In this document: piece by piece, positions 26,010 through 53,196 of the stretch | How positions within the stretch are numbered: position 1 is the stretch's first letter | Layout: every line of letters starts with the position of its first letter | Assembly (NCBI GenBank): GCA_964016885.1 | Contig: OZ024756.1 | Coordinates: 24,490,001-24,554,000, forward strand | DNA: 64,000 nucleotides | Direction of reading: 5' to 3' | DNA from: Eledone cirrhosa | Taxonomy: Eukaryota | Program-made: the position numbers and the translations under genes | The notes under the pieces: generated by a model | What the model was told of the DNA's origin: nothing | Database searches by the model: none | The model's input: only the letters and a program-made list of their open reading frames with translations

Positions 26010-26183
26010 CTTTTCAATAATTCTCCGAATTCCTTCGGTAGGAGCATCCTTATAGTGTTCAGGATCAACAGAGAGAAGCTTGAGAACCGAGATGGAACCA
26101 TTCGGTGTGCGAGCAAAGACATCGGTAAATGTACCACCACGGTCAATAGCAAATTGAAACTTACCGGAGCCTTTAGTTTGCAT
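26010..26183 (-). CDS. OPLAH: 5-oxoprolinase coding exon 1
   Basis: ATG at 26183; [27 protein letters not shown]...[13 protein letters not shown]; donor GTATGT, phase 0. Confidence 0.95.
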
Positions 26184-26829
26184 TTCTGTTGATTCAAACA
26201 AGCCTAACTTCTTTTAAGAAGTTCTCGTATTATCTTTATTTTTTAAATACAGGAGATTTAAGTTTAGTTAATTACCCGGTTAGCAAACATTAGCAGCTGG
26301 TTTATCTTACTTCTTTAATAGTTGTGAATGAAATAAATAACAATAACAGCCAACCAGGCATACAGCCAGTCAAACCAGAAACAGATTAGATAAAGTCAAC
26401 GAGGTTAGGTATTAAAATATGGAAGGCAGGAAGTGACAAAAATAAAAAATGAAACAAAGTTATCAATATGTATCTCTTTGTATGTCTGTCTCTCTTGCAC
26501 ACACACACACACTCACTTTCTCTCTCTGTTCCTCTTGCGCACACACACACTATTTGTTCCTCTTGCATACACACACATTGTTCTCCCCCCCCCCTTCTTT
26601 ATCTCCGACCCTGTCTTTTTTGTGCACACACACAGTATCCCTCTTACGCACACATTGTTCCTCTCTCACACATAACTATGACGAGATAACTGCGGTAAGA
26701 AAAAAATATTAGATAAGCTTAGTGTATGTGTGAAAGCGAGAGAGAGAGAGAGAGGGGGAGGGGGGTGTATGTGTGTGTATGAGTGAGAGGACGTGTATAT
26801 ACAAGAGAAGGGGTGTGAGAGAGAAGGTA

Positions 26830-28400
26830 GAAAGCCGAAATTATCATTCCCGATTGCCATTGCTTAGGTACCTTTCCAGAGTTCCTGGTTACCCAGCACA
26901 CACGAGTCAGCCAGAGAATACCTTCTCTATTTAAGGCTTTTAACATCTCGGGCCGGATTTCATCTTTCTCAGCGGCCTTGTCACATTTGAGCTCTTTAAC
27001 TGCTCTTGTGATCTCAGCCTCTGAGAGATTAGTCACCGCTCCCAGATGCACCTCGTGTACATCAGAAGATGCTGTTGTGATTGGGTTTAGCAAATCAGCT
27101 AAGTATTCTCTCCACCTCGCGAGGATGCACCTCTTTGAAGAGAGGATAACCTCCAGATGAATTCTTGATAGCAGGTGTGGAGGAGGGCTTCTTATTTCGA
27201 AATCGGTGGATCGTCTGCCAGAACACTTTATTTGCTGATCTGAAGTCGGGTTCCAGCTTAATTCCAAAGTCCTCCTATGTCTCCTAACTTTGGATGCCTT
27301 TACTGTCTCTGCTGCGAATTTTAGTGCCTGCTTGTACCGCACGTGCAAGAAGGGGGGATATTTCCAAGCCAAGCTTTGTATGCCTCCTTCTTTGATCGGA
27401 TGGCATCACTGACCTCTTGATTGAACCAAGGGATCCTGCTGCCACCCGGCGTCACATCAAGCCTCTTTCGCCCGCAACATTTAACAGCTGAGCTGAACAA
27501 TCTCCACTCTGTCTCAACGTCCGCAGGGAGTTCTATGAATTTGGATGCAATAGTTTCTGCACACCTAGTCCTGATTTCCTTATCCACCTGTTTCCCACTT
27601 TATCCTGTAAGTCACCCTGGACCTTCCAAGTTTAGGTAGTCTCAAGTTGCAGATAAATAGGTGATCAGTTGACAGCTCAGCCCCTCTTTTAACACGAACA
27701 TCCAGCACAGAATCGAAGAGATCAGAGACAATAACAAAATCAAATATTGATCTCTGTCCCTAATTCCCCTTATACCATGTTTATTTGTGGATGTTTCTGT
27801 GCTGGAGGTATTCATAATAGAGTCCATTGCCAGAACAGAAGTCTAATAAGGCTTCTCCATTCGTATTTAGATCGGGGTCGCCATTCCTTCCAATAATTCA
27901 TTTTTATGTCAGATGGCCAGTGCCAACATGTGCAATGAAGTCTCCATCAGGATATATGACTCAGTCCTAACTATAGCTAACGCTGCAGTGACTTCATCAA
28001 GGAAGGACCTGTATTCGGACTCCTTGGCTGGTGCATAAACATGCACCACCCACAGAGACCTATGTCTCAGACTAAGCTCCAAGAGGCAAATCCTCCCTCC
28101 TAATGGGATCCAGTCCATAACACATTTTGAGAGCCGGGGGTTTCTGAGTATCCCCACTTCCACCCTCCATCCAAATGTACAGTATCAGAGCCACGGAACT
28201 CAGTTGACAGATCGCAGGCCCATCGCCAGTTTTTGTGGTATGAAATGGAGACGGCAATATATCTTTCGAACAGGCCCCTCTACCTAAGGCTTGAACGCGT
28301 CTCTTGTTAAACCGCGCGAAAGACGATGCTGTACGGTTCTTTTTTGTTTTCCTCACCATATTGCAGTTGCAGTTTCGGTGGGCTTATTCACGCCAGTCAC
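26830..28400 (-). mobile_element. Decayed RTE-clade (Rex3/Expander-like) LINE fragment: APE endonuclease, linker and pre-RT region
   Basis: Broken frames encode VVHVYAP..EYRSFLDEV (APE), IPWFNQEVSDAIRSKKEAYKAWL, RWREYLADLLN and KAAEKDEIRPEMLKALNREGILWLTRVC...GKVPKQWQSG. Frameshifted, and ends before the RT core. Boundaries approximate. Confidence 0.88.
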
Positions 28401-28791
28401 TAATCCATTACTTTGTCAAACCCGCGAAGACTAGACTTTTTTAGAGGCTGCCTTTACTCGCCCCGTCATAGCTACGTCTCTGGGTTGTGATGGGAGCTAT
28501 AGGTGTCACCCATTGCGCCATCTCCTCTAGTATTTTACCGCTGTCGGTCCGGAGTCACTTATTCGTTCGGCAGTTGCCCGCTTATATCACAACTAACCAT
28601 CATATTTGGTGGCCGTATCGCTATACACCACCTGCAACCCGTTCTGCCGGGACCAAAGGGAGATAACCTGCAAACATTTAAAAAAAAAAAGAGTTGCCTT
28701 CAGAAAACAAATTTATTTATGTACAGATATTATGTAATTTGAGTATTATTGTAGAACACCCCATTCGATTTCAGACGGAAAACATTTTTTT

Positions 28792-29382
28792 ATCCACCAA
28801 CCTAACTTCCAAGATGCTGGTAATCAATTTTTTCCCCCGGAGACGGATGTGGTGGGGTGCACTCGCACTCGCCCTCTACGATTTTTTCTTCGCGTTTTAT
28901 CAACGAATAAGGCCCCCAAACCAGTCGGAATCGACTAGATTTGTAGAAAAAAGGGGTGTGAAAGGGGGCGAAAAGACCATCGGAGCTTCGTAGATCGACA
29001 CACTTCTTATGTTTGGTTGGAAATAATTATCTTTCCTCGTTTTTTACAGGACCTCTTAGATGCTTGCAATAGACTCACAGATTAAGGTTAGGATTTCCGT
29101 TTCCAGGAAAAAAAAAAAGTCGATTGCAAGCATCTAAGAGATCCAGAAAAAAACAAGGAAAGATAATTATTTCACTCCAAATGCGAGATGTGTGTATATC
29201 TGTGAAACTCCGATGATCTTTTCGCGCTTCCTTTTCTATAAGTCTAGTCGTTTCCGATAACAAAAAACAAAACAAAAAAAAAACAAAAAATGGAGATAAA
29301 ACTCCGAGGGAACACTCCATCACCTTCGTTCTCCGGGAAAAAAAAGTTGATTGCCAACATCTTGGAGGTTAGATTAGTTGAT
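28792..29382. repeat. Long imperfect inverted repeat (foldback/MITE-like), arms about 270-285 bp, loop about 40 bp
   Basis: CTCTTAGATGCTTGCAATAGACT pairs with AGTCGATTGCAAGCATCTAAGAG; GAAATAATTATCTTTCCT with AGGAAAGATAATTATTTC; CTAACTTCCAAGATGCTGG with CCAACATCTTGGAGGTTAG. Confidence 0.85.
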
Positions 29383-31579
29383 AGCACACGAAAAAAAAAA
29401 AAAGATTTTTTTCTATTGAAATACTGAGGGGAGTTTTACCTTATTTTGGATCGAAGATACAATGTCAGAGTTATCGATCAGTCTCATATCAGTGACGATT
29501 CATCGAACTGTATTGGTTATATGAAATAGTGCGCGCACCCCCAATTCCAACATATTTATGTGTGTTTAGTGCTGTATATAAACAAGTAATTTATGGTTCG
29601 TACACACGCAATAAAATTTCGTGTGTGCAAATCATCTCATGTATAAAGTTCAGATCAACCTAGAGCCAGCAGATCTATGATTAAAGGTATTCCAGTTATG
29701 ACTACCCACTCTTTTTATTTCAAACATAATATAAGTACGATGTTATTAAACGCATTCTGTCATTTTAAAAATTATAACAAAATAATAACAGGTAGATTGT
29801 AATTTAGGAGAGATGTGGCTGCTGTTTCTAGCAATTAGGTCAATTGACCACGTAGAGGGCTCCCTTAGAGCGGGATATAAACACACAAAGACGTATTCCC
29901 CCTCTTCCTTCCGTTTCTCGCATGTGCGCGTATTGTTTATAAAACAACGTAAATACAGTTACAGTAATCAGTAATAATTAATGAAAACATTCACAATTTA
30001 TCTGAAAAATAAATTAATTAAAATAAAAAACATCGAAACTAAATTGGATTGATTATTTTATATCAGGTTTTCGTTTTGACTAAACATTTGATCAACAAAG
30101 AGTTAATGCGATGAAGTCACACTTGCTATTTATTTCACACAGCGCCTCTCCGCCTATTGGTTACCTACAATATATATAAATATATACGTGCATATATTAA
30201 GATATATATATCTACACACACACACACATATATATTAAAAGCTACTGCAACTGCCACAACGATGAACAAAGGAGAGAAAAAGCAAGGTCGTATATATATA
30301 TATAAATATATCTGTGTATGTGTGCGCGTATATATGACATTATATATATATACATATATATAGTGAGTTTGAGTAAATATATATACATATATATATAGAA
30401 AGGGATAGTTTTATATAAATATACGTGTATCAAAATGGATGTTTAAAAATCATAGTACTTAAAACATCTAAACATTAACAGAATGAGTACTCAATAAGTA
30501 GAGTATATATTTTATTTTCTGGGTATATATGAAAGAGGGAGAGATGATATAGAGGGAAATATATATATAAAATTGTAGTGAGAGTCACGAGTATGAAGCA
30601 GATTCAGTGATAACGATCTATGATAATGTCAGGAAACTGGAATAGACAATAATAATAATAATAAAGATATCTATATAAGCCAAAAGAGCCCAGTATGACT
30701 TCATTGCTATAACTAGATAATGATCATGGTTAAAATAAAAAATTAAAATAATAATCGAAGAAAAATAAATTTCATTGTGGAAAAATATGTTTATGATGAG
30801 AGAAATAGAAATTTGTAATAATGATCTTATATAGAATTACAGGAAATTTATACATAAAAAAAAATTGGCAATTTTCCCAGTAATATAATTTTGGTGGGCT
30901 GAATTGTTTGTATTTTTAGTAAATGAACATCTAAAAAAACGTCATTCTGTTGCTAGAGTTACAAGTAAAAACGAAGGATGGTTGAATGTATAAAATAGGG
31001 AAGAGAAAATACTTATTTTTTCTATTTGAGAGGAAAAATAGGTTTTGTAGATCGAAACTCTGATAACATTCAGCCATTTTCGATCGTGCTCTGCACAGTT
31101 TCTATAAAACATGAAATGGCTACCAAAGATAATTGAAACTTTGGCACGAAGCGAAAGTTCCAGTTATAAGTATTAATGTCTCTTTAAAGTTTAATTGTAT
31201 TGAAATATTATCGTTTAAATTGTTTCTTTTTTCAATTTAATTAATTCATCAATAGAAATTTTAGATAAAAAAAGGTTTTTATAATTCTTATATATTTTTG
31301 CTATGCTATGCGTTATGTTTCGTCATATTTCCGGTCCGGGTTTTATAGAAACCGTTGTTGGCTTACCCGGCTACTATTCACCTTTTTTTCCTCGGAATGT
31401 AAGTTTAATGTCAGGCAGCAATTTTTGTGCTGTGATGTTTCCCAATGTTTTTTTTACCAACTACATTCATTTGAAAGACTTCACCCCAAGACCCGCATTC
31501 CAGTTTTAATGATTTACGTGTAAAGTCTTTATTGTCAACATCGAACAGTGAAATAATAAGAAACAAGTGACGTGAAGTG

Positions 31580-33539
31580 ATGTCTGAATGCAACTATAGC
31601 GATATGTCGAAAGGACAAACTAGTAGTGGTGGTGGTGGTGGTGGTGGTGGTGCTAGTAGTAGTGGTGGTGGTAGTACTACTGGAACAGCAACACAGATTT
31701 GTTTCAGAATTGATTCAGGACGTGATTTTACTCTGGATTTTCAGCCTCACCAGACTCTTTGCGACATCCTTAGTCGAACTATCTACGACAGTAAGAACTT
31801 CTGTGTTACCCACAACGGTAAAGTTCTTTTATGGTATTTCCCACTTTCAGAACAAAACATAAAGCCTACCGCAGACAACAACTACATCGAATGTAAAATA
31901 CATGCTAAAACTACGAAACCTCGGAGAGTCTGCGACCGAACTGACCTCAGTAACTTCGAAAGCCTCTATGACAGCGATCCGGATGTTTTTCTAAATTCTT
32001 CAAACGGATGTTTAGACTGTAACACCACTTCCGAGATTTTTTGTGATGGCAACAACTACAGTTATGGCTGCTATTCCGATCACCAGATCAGCAACTGTCG
32101 GATCGATAGACAATCTCGATCGTTTACAGTTGGCGATGATAGAAAGAATGAGAAACGAATGAAAAAGCGGGAATACCAGAGAAGACGTTATGCCAATATG
32201 TCACTGGCAGATAAACAGATGCGACTGGAACAGATGAAAGCTTATGAACGGGCAAAACGTGCGAGAGAAACTTTAGCGGAGAGAGAAGCTCGCCTCATGA
32301 GGTTAAGAATCAATCAACACAGACGGATTGATATCGAATCTGAGCCTGATCGATTAAGGCGATTGCAGAGACTACAAAAGAACCAACGACATCGAATACT
32401 TACCGAAGACCCAGATGGTCGGCACAAAAGACTGATACGAATGAGAGAAAATGCCCGAATGCGCGTCGAAAGAAGAAAGGCAATTGCACAGATATTGGGA
32501 AGTTGTAAGAGAGGACGGAAAAAAACAACGACGGCCGAATTATTGATGAGGCAAGCCAGCGACAATTTATCTTTCATGAGATTGAACTCCAAAAACAATA
32601 ATAATATCTCGGGCCGTAATCAAGGATTTTCATCTACGGAGCAAGGACAGAAAAATCCGAATGAAAGACAAGATGATTTTAGTTATTTAAGCCAGAATGA
32701 TAAAAATGTGTGCAATACCCAGGACGGTAACAGACAAGGTGGAGCGTTGTATTTGGATTCAAGTCATAAAAATTCCAACGGAGAATTTGCTTATATGAAA
32801 GAGAATAATGGTCAATGCCAGAATAGGATTAAGACTGGGATGGAACGTGGATCGGCTGGTGGGGCTGTTTTACCGTGTATGGAGTCAAATATGAACAAGG
32901 GCGGCCTCAACAAAGAGGGTCTGACAGATAAAACAGATGCCGCTGGCATATTTTCTCACCTGCATTCTAACCAAAACAAGGATATTGCTGCTAAAGAAAT
33001 GGGCTTTGACTGTCTGACATCACCACAAAATTCTATCAACGAAGAGAATGGCAAAACGGTAGCGAACGAAAGAGATGCTGGATTTTCTTATATTAGTGCA
33101 GCCCAAGGTTTGGGTCTTTCCGACAGAGACGGGGCCTTTCCTTATCTCAAGCCTAACTATAAGCCAACCCAGGTTGACTGTGTACGTACTGAGATAATGA
33201 CACCTCGAAGTGAAGATCTACTGAACTTGGATGCTATTCAAAGTTCACTTGATCAGTCGGGCAAAGGAACGGCTAAGGGTGGTCACAACGACCCCGGAAA
33301 CAACAGCAACAACAACCTGACATTACTGGACATTGGTGGTCAACAAAAAACTGGCAATTCCTCTTGTTCGTTTGCTTCGTCGAAGGTAGTGAAACGGAAG
33401 AAGAAAAAATCGACATTTAATCAGGGTGAAGTAGGGGGTGATTTTGGTGCGCTTGGACAATTGGACGAATTAGGGGCACTCGACAAGAAAAACATTGATT
33501 GCATGTTAGGGTCTCCATTTTCACCGATCATTTCTCAAG
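31580..33539 (+). CDS. Uncharacterised STPR-repeat protein, coding exon 1 (ubiquitin-like domain + 4 STPR repeats + NLS-like patch)
   Basis: 653-codon open frame with non-repetitive coding-like composition. ATG at 31580; donor CAAG|GTAAGT, phase 1. Four exact 23-aa repeats at 32198-32473. Read-through of the donor would stop at 33553. Confidence 0.88.
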
Positions 33540-33752
33540 GTAAGTCTAAATAATAATAAAATTAATGCAATTATATATATATATATATATATACATATAG
33601 TCCAACCCATGCGAGCTTGGGAAAACGGATGTAAAAACGACAATGATAAATGTATATATATTTTGATAATAATATATTGTTTAATAAACACCATACACAA
33701 CACATTTCCTTATTGTTTACATTGAGTATGTAATAAACACGGATGCCTATAC

Positions 33753-37869: not shown

Positions 37870-40380
37870 CCACCTGTGGGTCAAGATGGTGACAATATAT
37901 TACTTTGATCTCTCAGTTTACAGGTATTGTCTGTTATTAACACTGTGTCATCTCAAACTCCAAACACTGACCATCTGATGGTCAAGATGATAATATATAT
38001 ATATTACTTTGATATTAACATTGTGTCATCACAGACTCTAAACACTGACCATCTGATGGTCAAGGTGATGACAATATAATACTTTGATCTCTCAGTCTAC
38101 AGATATTGTCTGTCATTGACACTGTCATCACAGACTCTAAACACTGACCATCTGATGGTCAAGGTGATGACAATATAATACTTTGATCTCTCAGTCTACA
38201 GGTATTGTCTGTCATTGACACTGTCATCACAGACTCTAAACACTGACCATCTGATGGTCAAGGTGATGACAGTATAATACTTTAATCTCTCAGTCTACAG
38301 GTATTGTCTGTCATTGACACTGTCATCACAGACTCTAAACACTGACCATCTGATGGTCAAGGTGATGACAATATAATACTTTGATCTCTCAGTCTACAGA
38401 TATTGTCTGTCATTGACACTGTCATCACAGACTCTAAACACTGACCATCTGATGGTCAAGGTGATGACAATATAATACTTTGATCTCTCAGTCTACAGGT
38501 ATTGTCTGTCATTGACACTGTCATCACAGACTCTAAACACTGACCATCTGATGGTCAAGGTGATGACAGTATAATACTTTAATCTCTCAGTCTACAGGTA
38601 TTGTCTGTCATTGACACTGTCATCACAGACTCTAAACACTGACCATCTGATGGTCAAGGTGATGACAATATAATACTTTGATCTCTCAGTCTACAGGTAT
38701 TGTCTGTCATTGACACTGTCATCACATACTCTAAACACTGACCATCTGATGGTCAAGGTGACGACAATATAATACTTTGATCTCTCAGTCTACAGGTATT
38801 GTCTGTCATTGACACTGTCATCACAGACTCTAAACACTGACCATCTGATGGTCAAGGTGATGACAATATAATACTTTGATCTCTCAGTCTACAGGTATTG
38901 TCTGTCATTGACACTGTCATCACATACTCTAAACACTGACCATCTGATGGTCAAGGTGACGACAATATAATACTTTGATCTCTCAGTCTACAGGTATTGT
39001 CTGTCATTGACACTGTCATCACACTGACCATCTGATGGTCAAGGTGATGACAATATAATACTTTGATCTCTCAGTCTACAGGTATTGTCTGTCATTGATA
39101 CTGTCATCACATACTCTAAACACTGACCATCTGATGGTCAAGGTGATGACAATATAATACTTTGATCTCTCAGTCTACAGGTATTGTCTGTCATTGACAC
39201 TGTCATCACATACTCTAAACACTGACCATCTGATGGTCAAGGTGATGACAATACAATACTTTGATCTCTCAGTCTACAGGTATTGTCTGTCATTGACACT
39301 GTCATCACAGACTCTAAACACTGACCATCTGATGGTCAAGGTGATGACAATATAATACTTTGATCTCTCGGTCTACAGGTATTGTCTGTCATTGACACTG
39401 TCATCACATACTCTAAACACTGACCATCTGATGGTCAAGGTGATGACAGTATAATACTTTGATCTCTCAGTCTACAGGTATTGTCTGTCATTGACACTGT
39501 CATCACAGACTCTAAACACTGACCATCTGATAGTCAAGGTGATGACAATATAATACTTTGATCTCTCAGTCTACAGGTATTGTCTGTCATTGACACTGTC
39601 ATCACAGACTCTAAACACTGACCATCTGATGGTCAAGGTGATGACAATATAATACTTTGATCTCTCAGTCTACAGGTATTGTCTGTCATTGACACTGTCA
39701 TCACAGACTCTAAACACTGACCATCTGATAGTCAAGGTGATGACAATATAATACTTTGATCTCTCAGTCTACAGGTATTGTCTGTCATTGACACTGTCAT
39801 CACAGACTCTAAACACTGACCATCTGATGGTCAAGGTGATGACAATATAATACTTTGATCTCTCGGTCTACAGGTATTGGCTGTCATTGACACTGTCATC
39901 ACAGACTCTAAACACTGACCATCTGATGGTCAAGGTGATGACAATATAATACTTTGATCTCTCGGTCTACAGGTATTGTCTGTCATTGACACTGTCATCA
40001 CAGACTCTAAACACTGACCATCTGATGGTCAAGGTGATGACAATACAATACTTTGATCTCTCAGTCTACAGGTATTGTCTGTCATTGACACTGTCATCAC
40101 ATACTCTAAACACTGACCATCTGATGGTCAAGGTGATGACAATATAATACTTTGATCTCTCGGTCTACAGGTATTGGCTGTCATTGACACTGTCATCACA
40201 GACTCTAAACACTGACCATCTGATGGTCAAGGTGATGACAATATAATACTTTGATCTCTCAGTCTACAGGTATTGTCTGTCATTGACACTATCATCACAT
40301 ACTCTAAACACTGACCATCTGATGGTCAAGGTGATGACAATATAATACTTTGATCTCTCGGTCTACAGGTATTGGCTGTC
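37870..40380. repeat. 99-bp satellite, about 25 copies
   Basis: Unit ACACTGACCATCTGATGGTCAAGGTGATGACAATATAATACTTTGATCTCTCAGTCTACAGGTATTGTCTGTCATTGACACTGTCATCACAGACTCTAA. Confidence 0.97.
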
Positions 40381-43915: not shown

Positions 43916-46585
43916 GTGTGTGTGTTGTGTGTTAGGGATGTGTGTTGTGTGTTAGGGATGTGTGTTGTGTGTCAGGGATGTGTGTAGTGTGTCAGGGATG
44001 TGTGTTGTGTGTTAGGGATGTGTGTTGCGTGTTAGGGATGTGTGTTGTGTATTAGGGATGTGTGTTGTGTATTAGGGATGTGTGTTGTGTGTTAGGGATG
44101 TGTGTTGTGTGTTAGGGATGTGTGTTGTGTGTTAGGGATGTGTGTTGTGTGTTAGGGATGTGTGTTGTGTGTTAGGGATGTGTGTTGTGTATTAGGGATG
44201 TGTGTTGTGTGTTAGGGATGTGTGTTGTGTATTAGGGATGTGTGTTGTGTATTAGGGATGTGTGTTGTGTGTTAGGGATGTGTGTTGTGTGTTAGGGATG
44301 TGTGTTGTGTGTTAGGGTTGTGTGTTAGGGATGTGTGTTGTGTATTAGGGATGTGTGTTGTGTATTAGGGATGTGTGTTGTGTGTTAGGGTTGTGTGTTG
44401 TGTATTAGGGATGTGTGTTGTGTATTAGGGATGTGTGTTGTGTGTTAGGGATGTGTGTTGTGTATTAGGGATGTGTGTTGTGTGTTAGGGATGTGTGTTG
44501 TGTATTAGGGATGTGTGTTGTGTATTAGGGATGTGTGTTGTGTATTAGGGATGTGTGTTGTGTGTTAGGGATGTGTGTTGTGTATTAGGGATGTGTGTTG
44601 TGTGTTAGGGTTGTGTGTTGTGTATTAGGGATGTGTGTTGTGTATTAGGGATGTGTGTTGTGTGTTAGGGATGTGTGCTGTGTATTAGGGATGTGTGTTG
44701 TGTGTTAGGGATGTGTGTTGTGTGTTAGGGATGTGTGTTGTGTATTAGGGTTGTGTGTTGTGTGTTAGGGATGTGTGTTGTGTGTTAGGGTTGTGTGTTG
44801 TGTATTAGGGATGTGTGTTGTGTATTAGGGATGTGTGTTGTGTGTTAGGGATGTGTGCTGTGTATTAGGGTTGTGTGTTAGGGATGTGTGTTGTGTGTTA
44901 GGGATGTGTGTTGTGTATTAGGGTTGTGTGTTGTGTGTTAGGGATGTGTGTTGTGTGTTAGGGATGTGTGTTGTGTGTTAGGGATGTGTGTTGTGTATTA
45001 GGGATGTGTGTTGTGTGTTAGGGATGTGTGTTGTGTGTTAGGGATGTGTGTTGTGTATTAGGGATGTGTGTTGTGTGTTAGGCATGTGTGTTGTGTGTTA
45101 GGGATGTGTGTTGTGTGTTAGGGATGTGTGTTGTGTGTTAGGGATGTGTGTTGTGTGTTAGGGATGTGTGTTGTGTATTAGGGATGTGTGTTGTGTATTA
45201 GGGATGTGTGTTGTGTGTTAGGGATGTGTGTTGTGTATTAGGGATGTGTGTTGTGTGTTAGGGATGTGTGTTGTGTGTTAGGGATGTGTGTTGTGTATTA
45301 GGGATGTGTGTTGTGTGTTAGGGATGTGTGTTGTGTGTTAGGGATGTGTGTTGTGTGTTAGGGATGTGTGTTGTGTGTTAGGGATGTGTGTTGTGTGTTA
45401 GGGATGTGTGTTGTGTATTAGGGATGTGTGTTGTGTATTAGGGATGTGTGTTGTGTGTTAGGGATGTGTGTTGTGTGTTAGGGATGTGTGTTGTGTGTTA
45501 GGGATGTGTGTTGTGTGTTAGGGATGTGTGTTGTGTATTAGGGATGTGTGTTGTGTATTAGTGATGTGTGTTGTGTGTTAGGGATGTGTGTTGTGTATTA
45601 GGGATGTGTGTTGTGTGTTAGGGATGTGTGTTGTGTGTTAGGGATGTGTGTTGTGTGTTAGGGATGTGTGTTGTGTGTTAGGGATGTGTGTTGTGTATTA
45701 GGGATGTGTGTTGTGTATTAGGGATGTGTGTTGTGTGTTAGGGATGTGTGTTGTGTGTTAGGGATGTGTGTTGTGTATTAGGGATGTGTGTTGTGTGTTA
45801 GGGATGTGTGTTGTGTGTTAGGGATGTGTGTTGTGTATTAGGGATGTGTGTTGTGTGTTAGGGATGTGTGTTGTGTGTTAGGGATGTGTGTTGTGTGTTA
45901 GGGATGTGTGTTGTGTGTTAGGGATGTGTGTTGTGTGTTAGGGATGTGTGTTGTGTATTAGGGATGTGTGTTGTGTGTTAGGGATGTGTGTTGTGTATTA
46001 GGGATGTGTGTTGTGTGTTAGGGATGTGTGTTGTGTGTTAGGGATGTGTGTTGTGTGTCAGGGATGTGTATGTTGTGTGTCAGGGATGTGTGTAGTCTGT
46101 CAGTGATGTGTGTGTGATGTGTGTTGTGTGTCAGGGATGTGTGTTGTCTGTCAGTGATGTGTGTGTGATGTGTGTTGTGTGTCAGGGATGTGTGTTGTCT
46201 GTCAGGGATGTGTGTGTGTAGTGTGTCAGGGATGTGTGTGTGTAGTGTGTCAGGGATGTATGTGTGTTGTCTGTCAGTGATGTGTGTGTGATGTGTGTAG
46301 TGTGTCAGGGATGTATGTGTGTAGTCTGTCAGTGATGTGTGTGTGATGTGTGTTGTGTGTCAGGGATGTGTGTTGTCTGTCAGTGATGTGTGTTGTGTGT
46401 TAGGGATGTGTGTTGTGTGTGTGTGATGTGTGTAGTATGTCAGGGATGTGTGTAGTCTGTCAGGGATGTGTGTAGTGTGTCAGGGATGTGTGTTGTCTGT
46501 CAGTGATGTGTGTAGTGTGTCAGGGATGTGTGTGTGTAGTGTGTCAGGGATGTGTGTGTGTAGTGTGTCAGGGATGTGTGTGTCA
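43916..46585. repeat. 20-bp GT-rich satellite with TTAGGG in most units, about 130 unit-lengths
   Basis: Unit GGGATGTGTGTTGTGT(G/A)TTA; degenerates to TCAGGG variants after about 46060. Confidence 0.97.
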
Positions 46586-46639: not shown

Positions 46640-46815
46640 GTATCGGTCGAGAGTCAGACACCATGCTTTGAAGCATAGAGTTACGTCCCTTTATGATCTG
46701 AGTTCAAATCCCGCCGAGGTTAACTTTGCCTTTCAGCCTTACGGGGTCAATAAAATAAAGTACCAGTAATGTACTGGGTAATTGCTGGCCTTGTGCCTAA
46801 AAATAGAAACAATTA
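46640..46815 (+). mobile_element. tRNA-derived SINE
   Basis: Matches the 54703 copy and directly abuts the 84-bp array. Confidence 0.88.
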
Positions 46816-48288
46816 TCTATATACTAAGGTTGGTGGCTTGACAGAGCTGTTACATTCTGAGTTCAAATCCTACTGAGGTCAACTTTACCTTCCTTATTAT
46901 CTATATATTAAGGTTGGTGGCTTGACAGAGCTGTTACATTCTGAGTTCAAATCCTACTGAGGTCAACTTTACCTTCCTTATTATCTATATATTAAGGTTG
47001 GTGGCTTGACAGAGCTGTTACATTCTGAGTTCAAATCCTACTGAGGTCAACTTTACCTTCCTTATTATCTATATATTAAGGTTGGTGGCTTGACAGAGCT
47101 GTTACATTCTGAGTTCAAATCCTACTGAGGTCAACTTTACCTTCCTTATTATCTATATATTAAGGTTGGTGGCTTGACAGAGCTGTTACATTCTGAGTTC
47201 AAATCCTACTGAGGTCAACTTTACCTTCCTTATTATCTATATATTAAGGTTGGTGGGTTGACAGAGCTGTTACATTCTGAGTTCAAATCCTACTGAGGTC
47301 AACTTTACCTTCCTTATTATCTATATATTAAGGTTGGTGGCTTGACAGAGCTGTTACATTCTGAGTTCAAATCCTACTGAGGTCAACTTTACCTTCCTTA
47401 TTATCTATATATTAAGGTTGGTGGCTTGACAGAGCTGTTACATTCTGAGTTCAAATCCTACTGAGGTCAACTTTACCTTCCTTATTATCTATATATTAAG
47501 GTTGGTGGCTTGACAGAGCTGTTACATTCTGAGTTCAAATCCTACTGAGGTCAACTTTACCTTCCTTATTATCTATATATTAAGGTTGGTGGGTTGACAG
47601 AGCTGTTACATTCTGAGTTCAAATCCTACTGAGGTCAACTTTACCTTCCTTATTATCTATATATTAAGGTTGGTGGCTTGACAGAGCTGTTACATTCTGA
47701 GTTCAAATCCTACTGAGGTCAACTTTACCTTCCTTATTATCTATATATTAAGGTTGGTGGCTTGACAGAGCTGTTACATTCTGAGTTCAAATCCTACTGA
47801 GGTCAACTTTACCTTCCTTATTATCTATATATTAAGGTTGTTGGCTTGACAGAGCTGTTACATTCTGAGTTCAAATCCTACTGAGGTCAACTTTACCTTC
47901 CTTATTATCTATATATTAAGGTTGGTGGCTTGACAGAGCTGTTACATTCTGAGTTCAAATCCTACTGAGGTCAACTTTACCTTCCTTATTATCTATATAT
48001 TAAGGTTGGTGGCTTGACAGAGCTGTTACATTCTGAGTTCAAATCCTACTGAGGTCAACTTTACCTTCCTTATTATCTATATATTAAGGTTGGTGGCTTG
48101 ACAGAGCTGTTACATTCTGAGTTCAAATCCTACTGAGGTCAACTTTACCTTCCTTATTATCTATATATTAAGGTTGGTGGCTTGACAGAGCTGTTACATT
48201 CTGAGTTCAAATCCTACTGAGGTCAACTTTACCTTCCTTATTATCTATATATTAAGGTTGGTGGCTTGACAGAGCTGTTACATTCTGA
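46813..48288 (+). repeat. 84-bp satellite, about 17.5 copies, derived from a SINE head
   Basis: Unit TTATCTATATATTAAGGTTGGTGGCTTGACAGAGCTGTTACATTCTGAGTTCAAATCCTACTGAGGTCAACTTTACCTTCCTTA. Confidence 0.97.
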
Positions 48289-48703
48289 TTTCCATCACCC
48301 ACTGCCCCCTTCCACACTGTTTTTTGTCCTATGTTGTTGTTATTGCTACTCCCTCTCCTATTTCTAACTTGTTTTTCTTATGTATTTCACCTGCCTTTCT
48401 ATTGGTGTCTCTAACACCTTGCACTCTTGTGACCTTTGAAGGAATTTATTAGTACTATTATTTTGTTATTATTGTCGATAAAATAAAGTACCAGTAATGC
48501 ACTGGGATAATTCCTGGCCTTGTGCCAAAAGTAGAAACAATTATTATGTTTAAGCTCTTTACAAATTCCGCTGGAGTCAACTTCATCTTCCATCCTTCCA
48601 GGGTCGATAAAATAAAGTACCAGTTAAGTACTGGCTGGGCTTGATATAATCACCCCCCCCCCCCCTAAAATTGTTGGCCTCGTGCTTAAATCAAACCATT
48701 ATT

Positions 48704-48900: not shown

Positions 48901-48953
48901 GTTAATGTAGCATATTTCCATTCTAATAGTTGTGTTCTGTTTGTTTTTTGTAG

Positions 48954-49871
48954 AATTCTATAACAACTCTACAACGGAGATGATGACTCCGAAAGACAGG
49001 AAGCTTCTGAAGATGAGGCTGAAGCAACGGAGACGTCTTCACACAGAGACAGAAGCACAACGCAACAAACGTCTACAGCGCATGAAACGTTACCAACACC
49101 AACGCATGGCTGCCGAGGACCCAGAACATCGCCAGAAAAGGCTGATACGCATGCGAGAGAACGCGAGGAGACGCGAAGAGAGGAAGAAAGCTATAGCGCA
49201 ACTGTTGGGAAACAGCCACAAGGGAAAGAAAAAGTCGCAAGCCATTGCATTCCTAATGCGGCGGATGAAAGACAACGAGAGTTTGCTGCAGTATCAGAAT
49301 ATGCTCAACCGTGACGGCAGTAATTTGTCAAAGGTGTCTTCAAAGAACACGGATAAAGATTTCGGCTACATGTGTCCTGACGACAAGACCTGTGGAAACT
49401 TAGATGAAGGCCCCTGTTTTTCCAGCGAATGTAGCAAGTCTTGCAGGCAAGGAAATTCCTGTTGTAACGGAGAATTTCCTTACCTGAAAGAAAACGGTCG
49501 GCAATGCCAGAGCAGAAGCCACTCCAAAGGAACTCCGAATGGCTCTTACTCTTGTATGGAGCCACCAATGGACAGTAATAAAGATATGACGGAGAGAGGG
49601 TCTACTGGAGAAGTTGTCTTCCCTTCTTTCAACCAGATCCAGAACAGGGTGAACACAGATGGTGATGGAGGTAGCAATAATTTTGGTTGTTATTCCTCGG
49701 ACCAGAACAAATCGATGTCTAGCAGTGTGTCTGACTGTTCTTACATGAACAGCTGCAGCATGGGCAATGATGGATGCTACTCTAACATGAAATGCTCTCA
49801 AGATGGTAAGAAGAGGAAGAAAGGATGCGATGACTGTCTCTCTTCGTCACCGCTATCTTCCATGAATGAAG
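48954..49871 (+). CDS. Uncharacterised STPR-repeat protein, coding exon 2 (symmetric phase 1-1, 918 nt)
   Basis: Acceptor ttgttttttgtag, donor GAAG|GTAAGT. Paralogous to exon 1 (EDPEHRQKRLIRMRENARRREERKKAIAQLLG; NGEFPYLKEN). Confidence 0.85.
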
Positions 49872-51269: not shown

Positions 51270-51667
51270 AGGACCGTCATATTTGTATGATACAAAGAGC
51301 CAGTGAGAGTGTAACTATACACACACATGTAGATATACACACACACACACACTATAAATACCATATAATATATGTTTATATATATATAGTGGTGAAGGCG
51401 TGTGGCTGAGTGGTTAGAGAATTGGATTCACAATCTTGAGGTTGTGAGTTCGAGTCCTGGACCGATCGATGCGTTATGTCCTTGAGCAAGACATTTTATT
51501 TCACGTTGCTCCTTCTACCTGGAGTTGCGACCGATAGATAGTACTAGCAACTGGAAAGACCGATGGAAACATTGTTTCCTCGGTCCGATTTGACGAAAGT
51601 CGATCGCAAAAAAAAAAAAAAAAAAAATATATATATAGTGCTTAAAACCTACTTTATCTCATTGCAG

Positions 51668-53196
51668 ATTGTTATGAATGCTGTGCTAACAATATGATGT
51701 GTGGCCCCGACTGTGACCAAGGATCGAAACTTAAAGGAACCCAATTCAACGATGGCAACTGCGTGAACCCTCGAGAGAAAAGACTCGAACAGATGAGGCA
51801 GTACCAGCGGAAACGGTTAGAGAATGAATCGACTGAGGAACGACAGAAACGGCTAGAACGCATGCGGATGAATTCCAAGGTGCGCGTGGAAAGAAAGCGC
51901 ATGATGGTACAGATGATGAAGACCGGCCAAAAACCTCGTGACAAGGGGTCAACTTTGACTGAGCAGGACTCTCTCCTGCGCTACCCGGACGTCTGTGAGC
52001 AAGATGGGAACGTGGATAACTTCTGTATTGAGCAGACCGGGTTGAAAGGCAAAGAAGACCGCTTGCAGACTGCAAAAGGAAACCCAAACGAGGAACAGTC
52101 TCCTGATTTTGCATACGTCGGCTCAAACCAAAAGGCAGTGGTGAACAGACAGTCGGACTACCTTTATTCCAAGTCGAACATGTCAACAGACAACCACGGC
52201 AAGACAATGTCAGATCGAGACAGTGGGTTTATGGGTCGCAACCAAGTAAACAATAAAATTGTGCCGGAGAGGGGGAGTGTCTTCCCATGTATGGATCAAA
52301 TAACTGGCAAGAACGAACTGGATCGAGCCAGTTTGGGTGGTCCGGTGTTTCCCGGAATGACGCTGATCTCAAACAAGGACACACACGACAAGGGCCCCGT
52401 CTTTCCTTGTATGGATCAGGAGCAAAACAAGAACCTCCCTGCTGACCGAGGAGTAACTGGTGCAGGGGGAGGTGCAGATGTAACCGCAACAGCAACTGGC
52501 GGCGGCGGCGGCGGTGGTGGAGGAGGAGGAGGAGCGACGGCTTCTGGGGCTGGTGGTGGAATGGCAGGAGGGCCGTTCTGTCTGAATCCCTATCAGGCTG
52601 AAGTGACATCGGCTGACAGAGCGTCTATGTTTCCTTACGGTGTTCAGTCCCAGAACAAAGACCCAAATGATAAAGCTGGCGGTGTGATCCATTCATTCTT
52701 CAACCAAAACCAAGGTCGGAACATGACCGACCGAGATATAAACTTCCCTTGCATAATCCCCGAACAGAATCGAATGTCAAACTTCTCGTACATGAACCCT
52801 TACCATGGTGGTGGCGTTGCTGGCGGCAACCTTGACCGGGATGGAAACTGCTCTTACCTGAAAACAGTGCCGGATGTTAGAAAAAAAACTGACCATGGTC
52901 ATCGGAAAAAAGAGGTGGAGTCTTCTAGTTCTGCATTTTCTTCTTCTGTCGTCAACTACGGGAAATCTGCTGATACTGGAATGCAAATGTATTCGAAGCA
53001 AAGTCTCGGCTATATGTGTATTTCGTGTGAAAGGCCATTGCCTAGAGATCAACTGAGTCGATTTTCACCATTTCCTGGTTCGCTGATCCCAGATCACGAT
53101 CCCAACAAACTCGCAGACCAACAGAAGCAGTGGATATGCAAGACCTGTGAGAAATTAAAAAGGAACTACCACTTATTTCCGAACCCCGTCAGCTAA
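51668..53196 (+). CDS. Uncharacterised STPR-repeat protein, terminal coding exon 3 (STPR repeats, Gly-rich tract, C-terminal C4 zinc finger)
   Basis: Acceptor ctttatctcattgcag, phase 1, in frame with the 500-aa ORF; TAA ends at 53196. Contains ESTEERQKRLERMRMNSKVRVER and CISC-x36-CKTC. Confidence 0.87.

Follow-up and report, generated by a model that had tools for sequence, protein, structure and literature searches.

FMBP-1 of Bombyx mori binds DNA through a single array of four STPR repeats that are 60–80% identical to one another, each of which turns helical in the major groove and occupies 4 bp (PMC4856987). Residues R6, R9, L10, Y16 and R20 of the repeat contact phosphates, and M13, S14, A17 and L21 pocket thymine methyl groups; in vitro, three repeats bind with a Kd of 547 nM and four repeats with a Kd of 119 nM (PMC4856987). 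In cells, stable binding is reported to be abolished when repeat 4 is missing or when R9A is introduced in repeats 2–4 (PMC4821344). STPR arrays are also found in mobile DNA. The HELIANO study describes their capture by Helitron-like elements, almost only of the HLE1 type, and gives DUF6570 as a marker of HLE2 (PMC11417382). Several host DNA-binding proteins derived from transposons (THAP, ZBED, CENPB, HTH-Psq, FLYWCH and FHY3) retain a non-catalytic transposon domain in a host gene, as we propose for the gene described here. The inactive, Helitron-related VTD genes of Drosophila also hold several copies of a domain, but it is a deubiquitinase domain and not a DNA-binding front (PMC9741609).

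Analysis of a 64,000-nucleotide stretch of the Eledone cirrhosa genome (the window) revealed a conserved octopod gene composed of three tandem STPR modules. We propose that it arose by domestication of the front end of a Helentron (HLE2) transposase and predict that its product binds DNA chiefly by way of the first array (head 1); we assign this reading a probability of about 0.6. The gene is on the plus strand. Exon 1 (31580–33539), defined by its open reading frame, donor and frame, runs from the ATG to a phase-1 GT donor (AAG/GTAAGT) and encodes module 1; exon 2 (48954–49871; 918 nt, phase 1-1) encodes module 2, which has no finger; and exon 3 (51668–53196), coding up to the stop, encodes module 3. 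All exon borders are GT–AG and in phase 1, the spliced exons form a single open frame of 1468 codons, and the frame is preserved if exon 2 is skipped. Intron 1 contains three large tandem arrays (38024–40380, 99 bp × 24; 43919–46581, 20 bp × 133; 46812–48292, 84 bp × 18). Upstream, a 5-oxoprolinase gene on the minus strand (3619–26183, start codon at 26183; Pfam Hydant_A_N) lies in head-to-head orientation to the STPR gene, the two start codons being around 5.4 kb apart. The sequence between them holds nested inverted repeats at 28791–29383, with 108-nt arms (82% complementary) within 43-nt arms, that resemble a MITE or foldback element (the repeat listing covered 27500–31600), as well as a 228-codon frame at 26719–27405 on the minus strand that by eye is similar to a LINE reverse-transcriptase fragment and has no corresponding Pfam family.

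An earlier note on this DNA had assigned the three coding segments to one chain. This assignment is supported by the open spliced frame, by an exon 2–3 junction present in a contig and by orthologues annotated as one protein. Record 8 of X4, a set of contigs from one sample whose molecule type is not on record, covers 48952–49869 joined directly to 51666–52485, which is the predicted junction offset by a shared AG, and has 403 further letters past the exon 2 acceptor, outside the stretch compared. An X1 contig continues through that acceptor, as expected of DNA. Orthologue annotation places both predicted junctions at the same sites, and of the two, the exon 2–3 junction was also seen directly in a contig. 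The joined X4 sequence, which is a single contig, may alternatively come from a processed retrocopy. It is hardly credible that the three frames are separate tandem paralogous genes: relatives do exist as single-module frames with their own stop, and an in-frame stop and AATAAA lie within 16 nt of the exon 1 donor, but the X4 record has exons 2 and 3 fused where predicted and continues for another 403 letters beyond the acceptor of exon 2, and the three orthologues are annotated as a single protein of 1441–1443 aa with the same junctions. Because of this stop and AATAAA (33551–33560), an exon-1-only isoform produced through intronic polyadenylation is possible. Two differences from the window were noted in the contigs. 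At 49669, X4 has a synonymous (Gly) A>G change that is absent from X1 and represents either RNA editing or an allele, the latter being an option since X4 is another sample. At 52030, X1 has a G>A change (Glu to Lys) that is likely the other allele.

The feature flagged in the earlier note, 32198–32473 on the plus strand, translates into the four consecutive 23-residue units quoted there, with R9–L10 in 4/4 units. A degenerate fifth unit, in register (Y16, R20) and missed by the note, directly precedes them at 32129–32197. Head 2 comprises three units (48977–49183), the first of which is degenerate, and head 3 comprises two (51757–51894), the first without E1/T2. The segments previously placed at 49046–49183 and 51766–51894 translate as described, whereas the unit counts needed correction for exon 1, which has the fifth unit, and for exon 2, which has three. 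The reported fall in repeat number from exon 1 to exon 3 holds, with array sizes of 5/3/2 when degenerate units are included. A profile built from the ten units found no further STPR units in the window's six frames. The self-similarity of the exon 1 array (BLOSUM62) is maximal at lag 23 (1.23, with the next best lag at 0.16; z = 6.5, or 6.55 with the degenerate fifth unit counted in), and 0/2000 shuffles matched this peak at any lag from 5 to 40. Lag 23 is likewise the peak for the arrays of exons 2 and 3, which were equalled at their best lag by 17/2000 and 2/2000 shuffles, respectively. The register is as exact as had been claimed, but the units themselves are not closely alike: the four flagged units are pairwise identical at just 4–10 of 23 residues, and identity inside an array is mostly 9–43%. 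Net charge per unit ranges from +2 to +7.

The earlier note had proposed a search with the STPR profile HMM. Compared with the curated Pfam cut-off of 27 bits (PF21107), the excised arrays of exons 1, 2 and 3 scored 43.4, 31.4 and 30.9 bits, and the whole of the orthologous protein P0004 scored 60.2 bits; scores for the whole exons were 26.3, 29.8 and 22.8 bits, with exons 1 and 3 below the cut-off. The only match of the repeats among PDB sequences was the FMBP-1 structure 5d23 (E 4e-4). Of the hallmarks described for every STPR repeat, namely Glu1, Thr/Ser2 and Arg9 (PMC4856987), the octopod units keep E1 in 7/10 units, T/S2 in 5/10 and R9 in 8/10, and all three together in 4/10 units, including 2/4 of those flagged. 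Arrays of three or more repeats are found in head 1 (five) and head 2 (three, one degenerate); head 3 has two. Translation, profile and periodicity support the identification of the flagged units as real STPR-type repeats. A generic charged single alpha-helix is ruled out by the profile matches and the exact 23-residue period. The octopod gene thus has in common with FMBP-1 and ZNF821 basic 23-residue units in exact register, R9–L10 and a four-unit core. Unlike FMBP-1, it has three arrays rather than one, base-contact residues that are mostly substituted, a C4 finger and, probably, a ubiquitin-like domain; Pfam detects no C2H2 finger in it.

The gene product is 82% identical (1200–1208 of 1468 residues) to proteins of three Octopus species: O. 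sinensis LOC115221555 (XP_029647615.2), O. vulgaris CAI9737178.1 and O. bimaculoides LOC106870383. Their architecture does not differ from that of the Eledone gene, with the same repeats, finger and junctions, and UniRef labels two of them 'STPR domain-containing protein'; the exon 1 protein taken by itself is 80% identical to XP_029647615.2. Between units and modules, pS is saturated (0.77–0.95) and pN is 0.14–0.54. In comparison with O. sinensis, identity is 187/207 residues in nine units (omitting the degenerate unit E1u0, at 16/23; Fisher p 1e-4), as against 685/867 for the tails, and the N-terminal domain (69/73; Fisher p 6e-4) and the finger plus C-terminus (64/65; Fisher p 1e-5) also exceed the tails. 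The four flagged units are identical to P0004 at 87/92 residues, and the degenerate fifth unit is 14–16/23 identical across orthologues. Because pS is saturated, pN is far from it and the units are more conserved than the tails, purifying selection on the repeats is supported at the sequence level, bearing out the earlier argument that the DNA diverged while the protein pattern was kept.

Each exon holds one copy of a module consisting of an STPR array, a helix and a low-complexity tail. In module 1, the post-repeat basic helix and tail (32474–33539) can be aligned to the exon 2 and exon 3 tails; an F-[SPAG]-[CY]-hydrophobic motif recurs in this segment, and a basic cluster lies at 33392. Exon-to-exon BLASTP alignments (E 1e-7 to 7e-21) extend across 220–240 residues, well past the repeats, and 18/23 residues are shared by the final units of heads 1 and 2, above any within-array pair, which argues that the duplicated unit comprised repeats, helix and tail. 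By these alignments, whole modules and not just repeats were triplicated, a point absent from the earlier note. The tails at 32561–33538, 49289–49870 and 51961–52998, and those of the related proteins P0009 and P0014, carry 3–7 copies of F/Y-[SPAG]-[CY]-hydrophobic, often 14–22 residues apart; shuffles give an expectation of 0.04–0.09 copies for this pattern, which was picked after viewing the sequences. The motif may represent a repeat that has decayed or an array of linear motifs.

A phmmer search of 1.84 billion proteins with exon 3 gave four matches, none of them a Helentron protein: the orthologue, P0008, P0009 and P0010, the last of which is an unrelated STPR protein. P0009 and its cluster (434–512 aa) have an exon-2-like head, a tail, their own finger and their own stop, and P0014 (482 aa) combines a module resembling that of exon 3 with a finger; P0009, P0014 and P0015–P0018 are all single modules, each with its own four-cysteine finger at the end. 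Their distance, at around 30–40% identity, suggests a more distant cephalopod lineage. Either P0009 and P0014 come from different genes or they could be last exons used in alternation. When heads alone were used to build a tree of 13 modules, P0014 fell with the exon 3 group (support 98/96), and P0009 and P0017 fell beside exons 1 and 2 without firm placement and with a long-branch warning. P0009 aligns along exon 2 as far as a Gly-Lys just ahead of its finger, which is the site of the exon 2 donor. Read-through translation of the exon 1 and exon 2 donors gives Gly-Lys in both cases; this is expected of any phase-1 GTAAG donor, so that homologous placement rests on the exon 2 alignment. No finger remnants were found downstream of exon 1 or exon 2. 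Residues 1–340 of P0004 matched 0/1953 candidates among shorter proteins, and exon 1 matched 1/8000 longer proteins in a set that left out lengths of 793–1143, so that a distant orthologue of module 1 may still exist.

The octopod gene keeps a finger only at its C-terminal end. This four-cysteine finger (53011–53163; Cys pairs at 53017–53028 and 53137–53148) is 51/52 identical to those of the orthologues, and the stop codon follows 15 codons past the last Cys. An Atlas feature search with the last 74 residues, which preceded the finger profile search, returned DUF6570 as the only named family (21/30 matches, score 0.91); the family is present on 26% of the listed cluster, and the 153 shared features are below the 170 typical of same-family matches. 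When a three-sequence finger profile was run against 5.8 billion proteins, five of 2484 candidates matched, comprising four family members and P0020, the only match outside the family (E 1.4e-3; 36% identity across 59 residues). In P0020, a DUF6570 match starts at profile position 1, immediately after the finger (E 2e-4, below the cut-off).

A metagenome scan confirmed two Helentron loci, L001 and L002, among 153 stretches. L002 (1–6341) is a near-complete Helentron in a metagenome contig, with two frame breaks in the helicase region, and encodes five 23-residue repeats, a finger 22 residues further on, and then DUF6570, OTU, Rep, PIF1 and an endonuclease; L001 has the finger, DUF6570 and OTU. 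Both loci were retrieved with a pattern derived from the shared motif, a selection that did not extend to the repeats upstream or the enzymes downstream. Likeness of the octopod finger to L001 and L002 is consequently in part circular, which applies to the HHalign comparison of the two fingers (probability 96, 56 columns) and to the reciprocal search of exon 3 with a Helentron profile (E 8e-7, or E 0.075 and second rank without the selected half). No loci were confirmed in viral contigs and none were found in plasmids; L003, a candidate from genome contigs, was spurious. The Helentron RepHel N-terminus, exemplified by L002, shares with the octopod protein an STPR-type array followed by an alignable C4 finger, and the octopod protein ends near the point at which DUF6570 would start. 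Unlike Helentrons, the octopod gene has introns, is conserved across species, carries an insert of 300–370 residues and a repeat subtype other than that of L002, and lacks DUF6570, OTU, Rep, helicase and endonuclease. Remnants of DUF6570, Rep or helicase were absent from the window, as tblastn with the three L002 ORFs matched the finger only (E 0.013). Together with the Atlas and profile matches, the order shared with L002 leads us to consider a Helentron derivation of the finger quite likely, on a link that spans around 55 residues.

If the finger were instead simply a treble-clef zinc finger of generic type, for instance a ZAD-like dimerization domain, its Helentron likeness would be convergent and the gene would be an ordinary lineage-specific STPR factor. 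The structural model of the finger (pLDDT 62) best matches ZAD domains and other treble clefs, at Z ≤3.9; the top row, a ZAD domain (rmsd 4.2 over 59 residues), ties with other treble clefs and does not discriminate among them. Pfam gives weak matches to several unrelated fingers (E 0.005–0.1), and the link is short. Against this, zf-AD is missing from the Pfam matches at E 10, the sole non-family profile match and the only named Atlas family are both linked to DUF6570, and identity to P0020 reaches 36% over 59 residues. We regard convergence as quite improbable.

Homology to a Helentron protein was found for the finger only and is modest (E 1.4e-3), with only three Helentron finger sequences available for comparison. 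The repeats occur in the same order as in L002, but the two repeat sets have no mutual profile match: the L002 repeats have lag 23 as their best period and match PF21107 weakly (E 0.001), which marks them as a divergent STPR subtype, and the octopod unit profile did not match them at E 10. Two Helentron fragments, P0021 (at its N-terminus) and L001 (675–1090), have short tandem peptide repeats ahead of the finger that are unlike STPR (no PF21107 match), so that the repeat slot varies among Helentrons. Because the L002 repeats are unmatched, and because HELIANO places STPR nearly exclusively in HLE1 and DUF6570 in HLE2, repeats and finger may differ in source. The gene could then be a chimera whose finger was acquired separately and whose repeats came either from an HLE1 fragment or from an ancient STPR gene of the host (FMBP-1/ZNF821-like), or Helentrons could have taken the pair from a host. 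Such an origin is consistent with the fit of the octopod units to an FMBP-1-type profile rather than to the L002 repeats, and with the distance between repeats and finger, which is 296–374 residues in the cephalopod-type proteins versus 22 in L002. It is countered by the order, shared with L002, of repeats and then finger, with the protein ending where DUF6570 would begin, by the weak PF21107 match of the L002 repeats themselves and by a Helentron sample of two loci only. We consider a mixed origin unlikely, though deserving of attention; if true, the product would still be a DNA-binding protein.

Ahead of the repeats, residues 38–110 (31691–31909) form a strongly conserved domain, identical to P0004 at 69/73 residues. 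All three of its matches among PDB sequences are ubiquitin variants (E 0.27–0.8), and the Atlas rows with a family, all three of them ubiquitin-type (score 0.85–0.87), serve as leads. The model has the expected strand-strand-helix-strand-strand-strand order at a pLDDT of 43. Pfam gave no match for this domain and fold searches with the low-confidence model gave no clear match. These sequence and model features point weakly to a probable ubiquitin-like domain.

DNA binding, and the differing affinity of the three heads put forward in the earlier note, are predictions, considered here by comparison with the FMBP-1 contacts. Across the ten octopod units, R6 is kept in 7/10 (with K in the other three), R9 in 8/10, L10 in 9/10, R20 in 9/10 and M13 in 7/10, whereas the positions grouped as base contacts are mostly changed (S14 0/10, A17 2/10, Y16 4/10). 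Since the phosphate-contact residues are kept and the base-contact residues changed, backbone clamping is likely retained and specificity is likely different; the sequence preference of FMBP-1 is thus not transferable. By this analogy, head 1 is likely a DNA-binding module, and the two-unit head 3 is probably not an independent binder, because FMBP-1 without repeat 4 loses stable binding in cells. The same substitutions could indicate that the repeats, although STPR-derived, no longer read DNA sequence and serve, as basic helices, in RNA binding, nonspecific chromatin association or nuclear import, as could the joint presence of E1, T/S2 and R9 in only 4/10 units. This is very unlikely, as the 23-residue register and the phosphate-contact arginines are maintained under selection, and a plain charged helix has no need of the period.

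Under the domesticated-Helentron reading, a segment comprising an STPR array and the C4 finger would have shed DUF6570, Rep and helicase and acquired a low-complexity insert of 300–370 residues. Tandem duplication of the STPR–finger module would have followed, and splice donors placed just 5′ of the finger would have linked the copies into a chain, such that the inner fingers are spliced away and the last one is left, and the ubiquitin-like domain would have joined the front of the gene. Observed features that bear on domestication are an intact, spliced gene that is conserved between species and under purifying selection. By analogy with FMBP-1, each STPR unit would fold into a helix on contact and sit in the major groove over around 4 bp; head 1 would serve as an anchor covering 16–20 bp. 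Flexible tethers of roughly 350 and 260 residues would carry heads 2 and 3, which would contribute avidity and not bind independently. Such a protein would most likely regulate chromatin or transcription through multivalent binding to AT-rich DNA. A broader scenario, which we hold as doubtful, is that a cephalopod-specific factor family arose from the Helentron DNA-binding front, was amplified in tandem and culminated in the three-headed octopod fusion, that it reads Helentron ends or the AT-rich simple repeats with which octopus genomes are filled, and that FMBP-1 and ZNF821 may share this origin; if so, one rolling-circle transposon would have supplied both a factor and its sites.

In the literature searched, which has most subscription journals and supplements outside its range, we found no host factor made out of a rolling-circle transposase's DNA-binding front and no paper containing any of the five accessions searched, and STPR appeared together with Helitron in HELIANO only. 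The main text of a metazoan survey that includes Octopus contains neither 'helitron' nor 'STPR' (PMC10027918). The STPR label (in UniRef) and STPR capture by Helitron-like elements (PMC11417382) were already known; the module triplication and the finger's link to Helentrons are new here. Host DNA-binding proteins that originate from cut-and-paste transposases are well catalogued, whereas a rolling-circle source has rarely been reported. The gene records a readable history, with single finger-bearing modules in distant relatives and three chained modules in octopods. It would also allow the number of STPR units required for binding to be tested directly, and its product is a candidate for a protein that reads the cephalopod genome, rich as it is in repeats.
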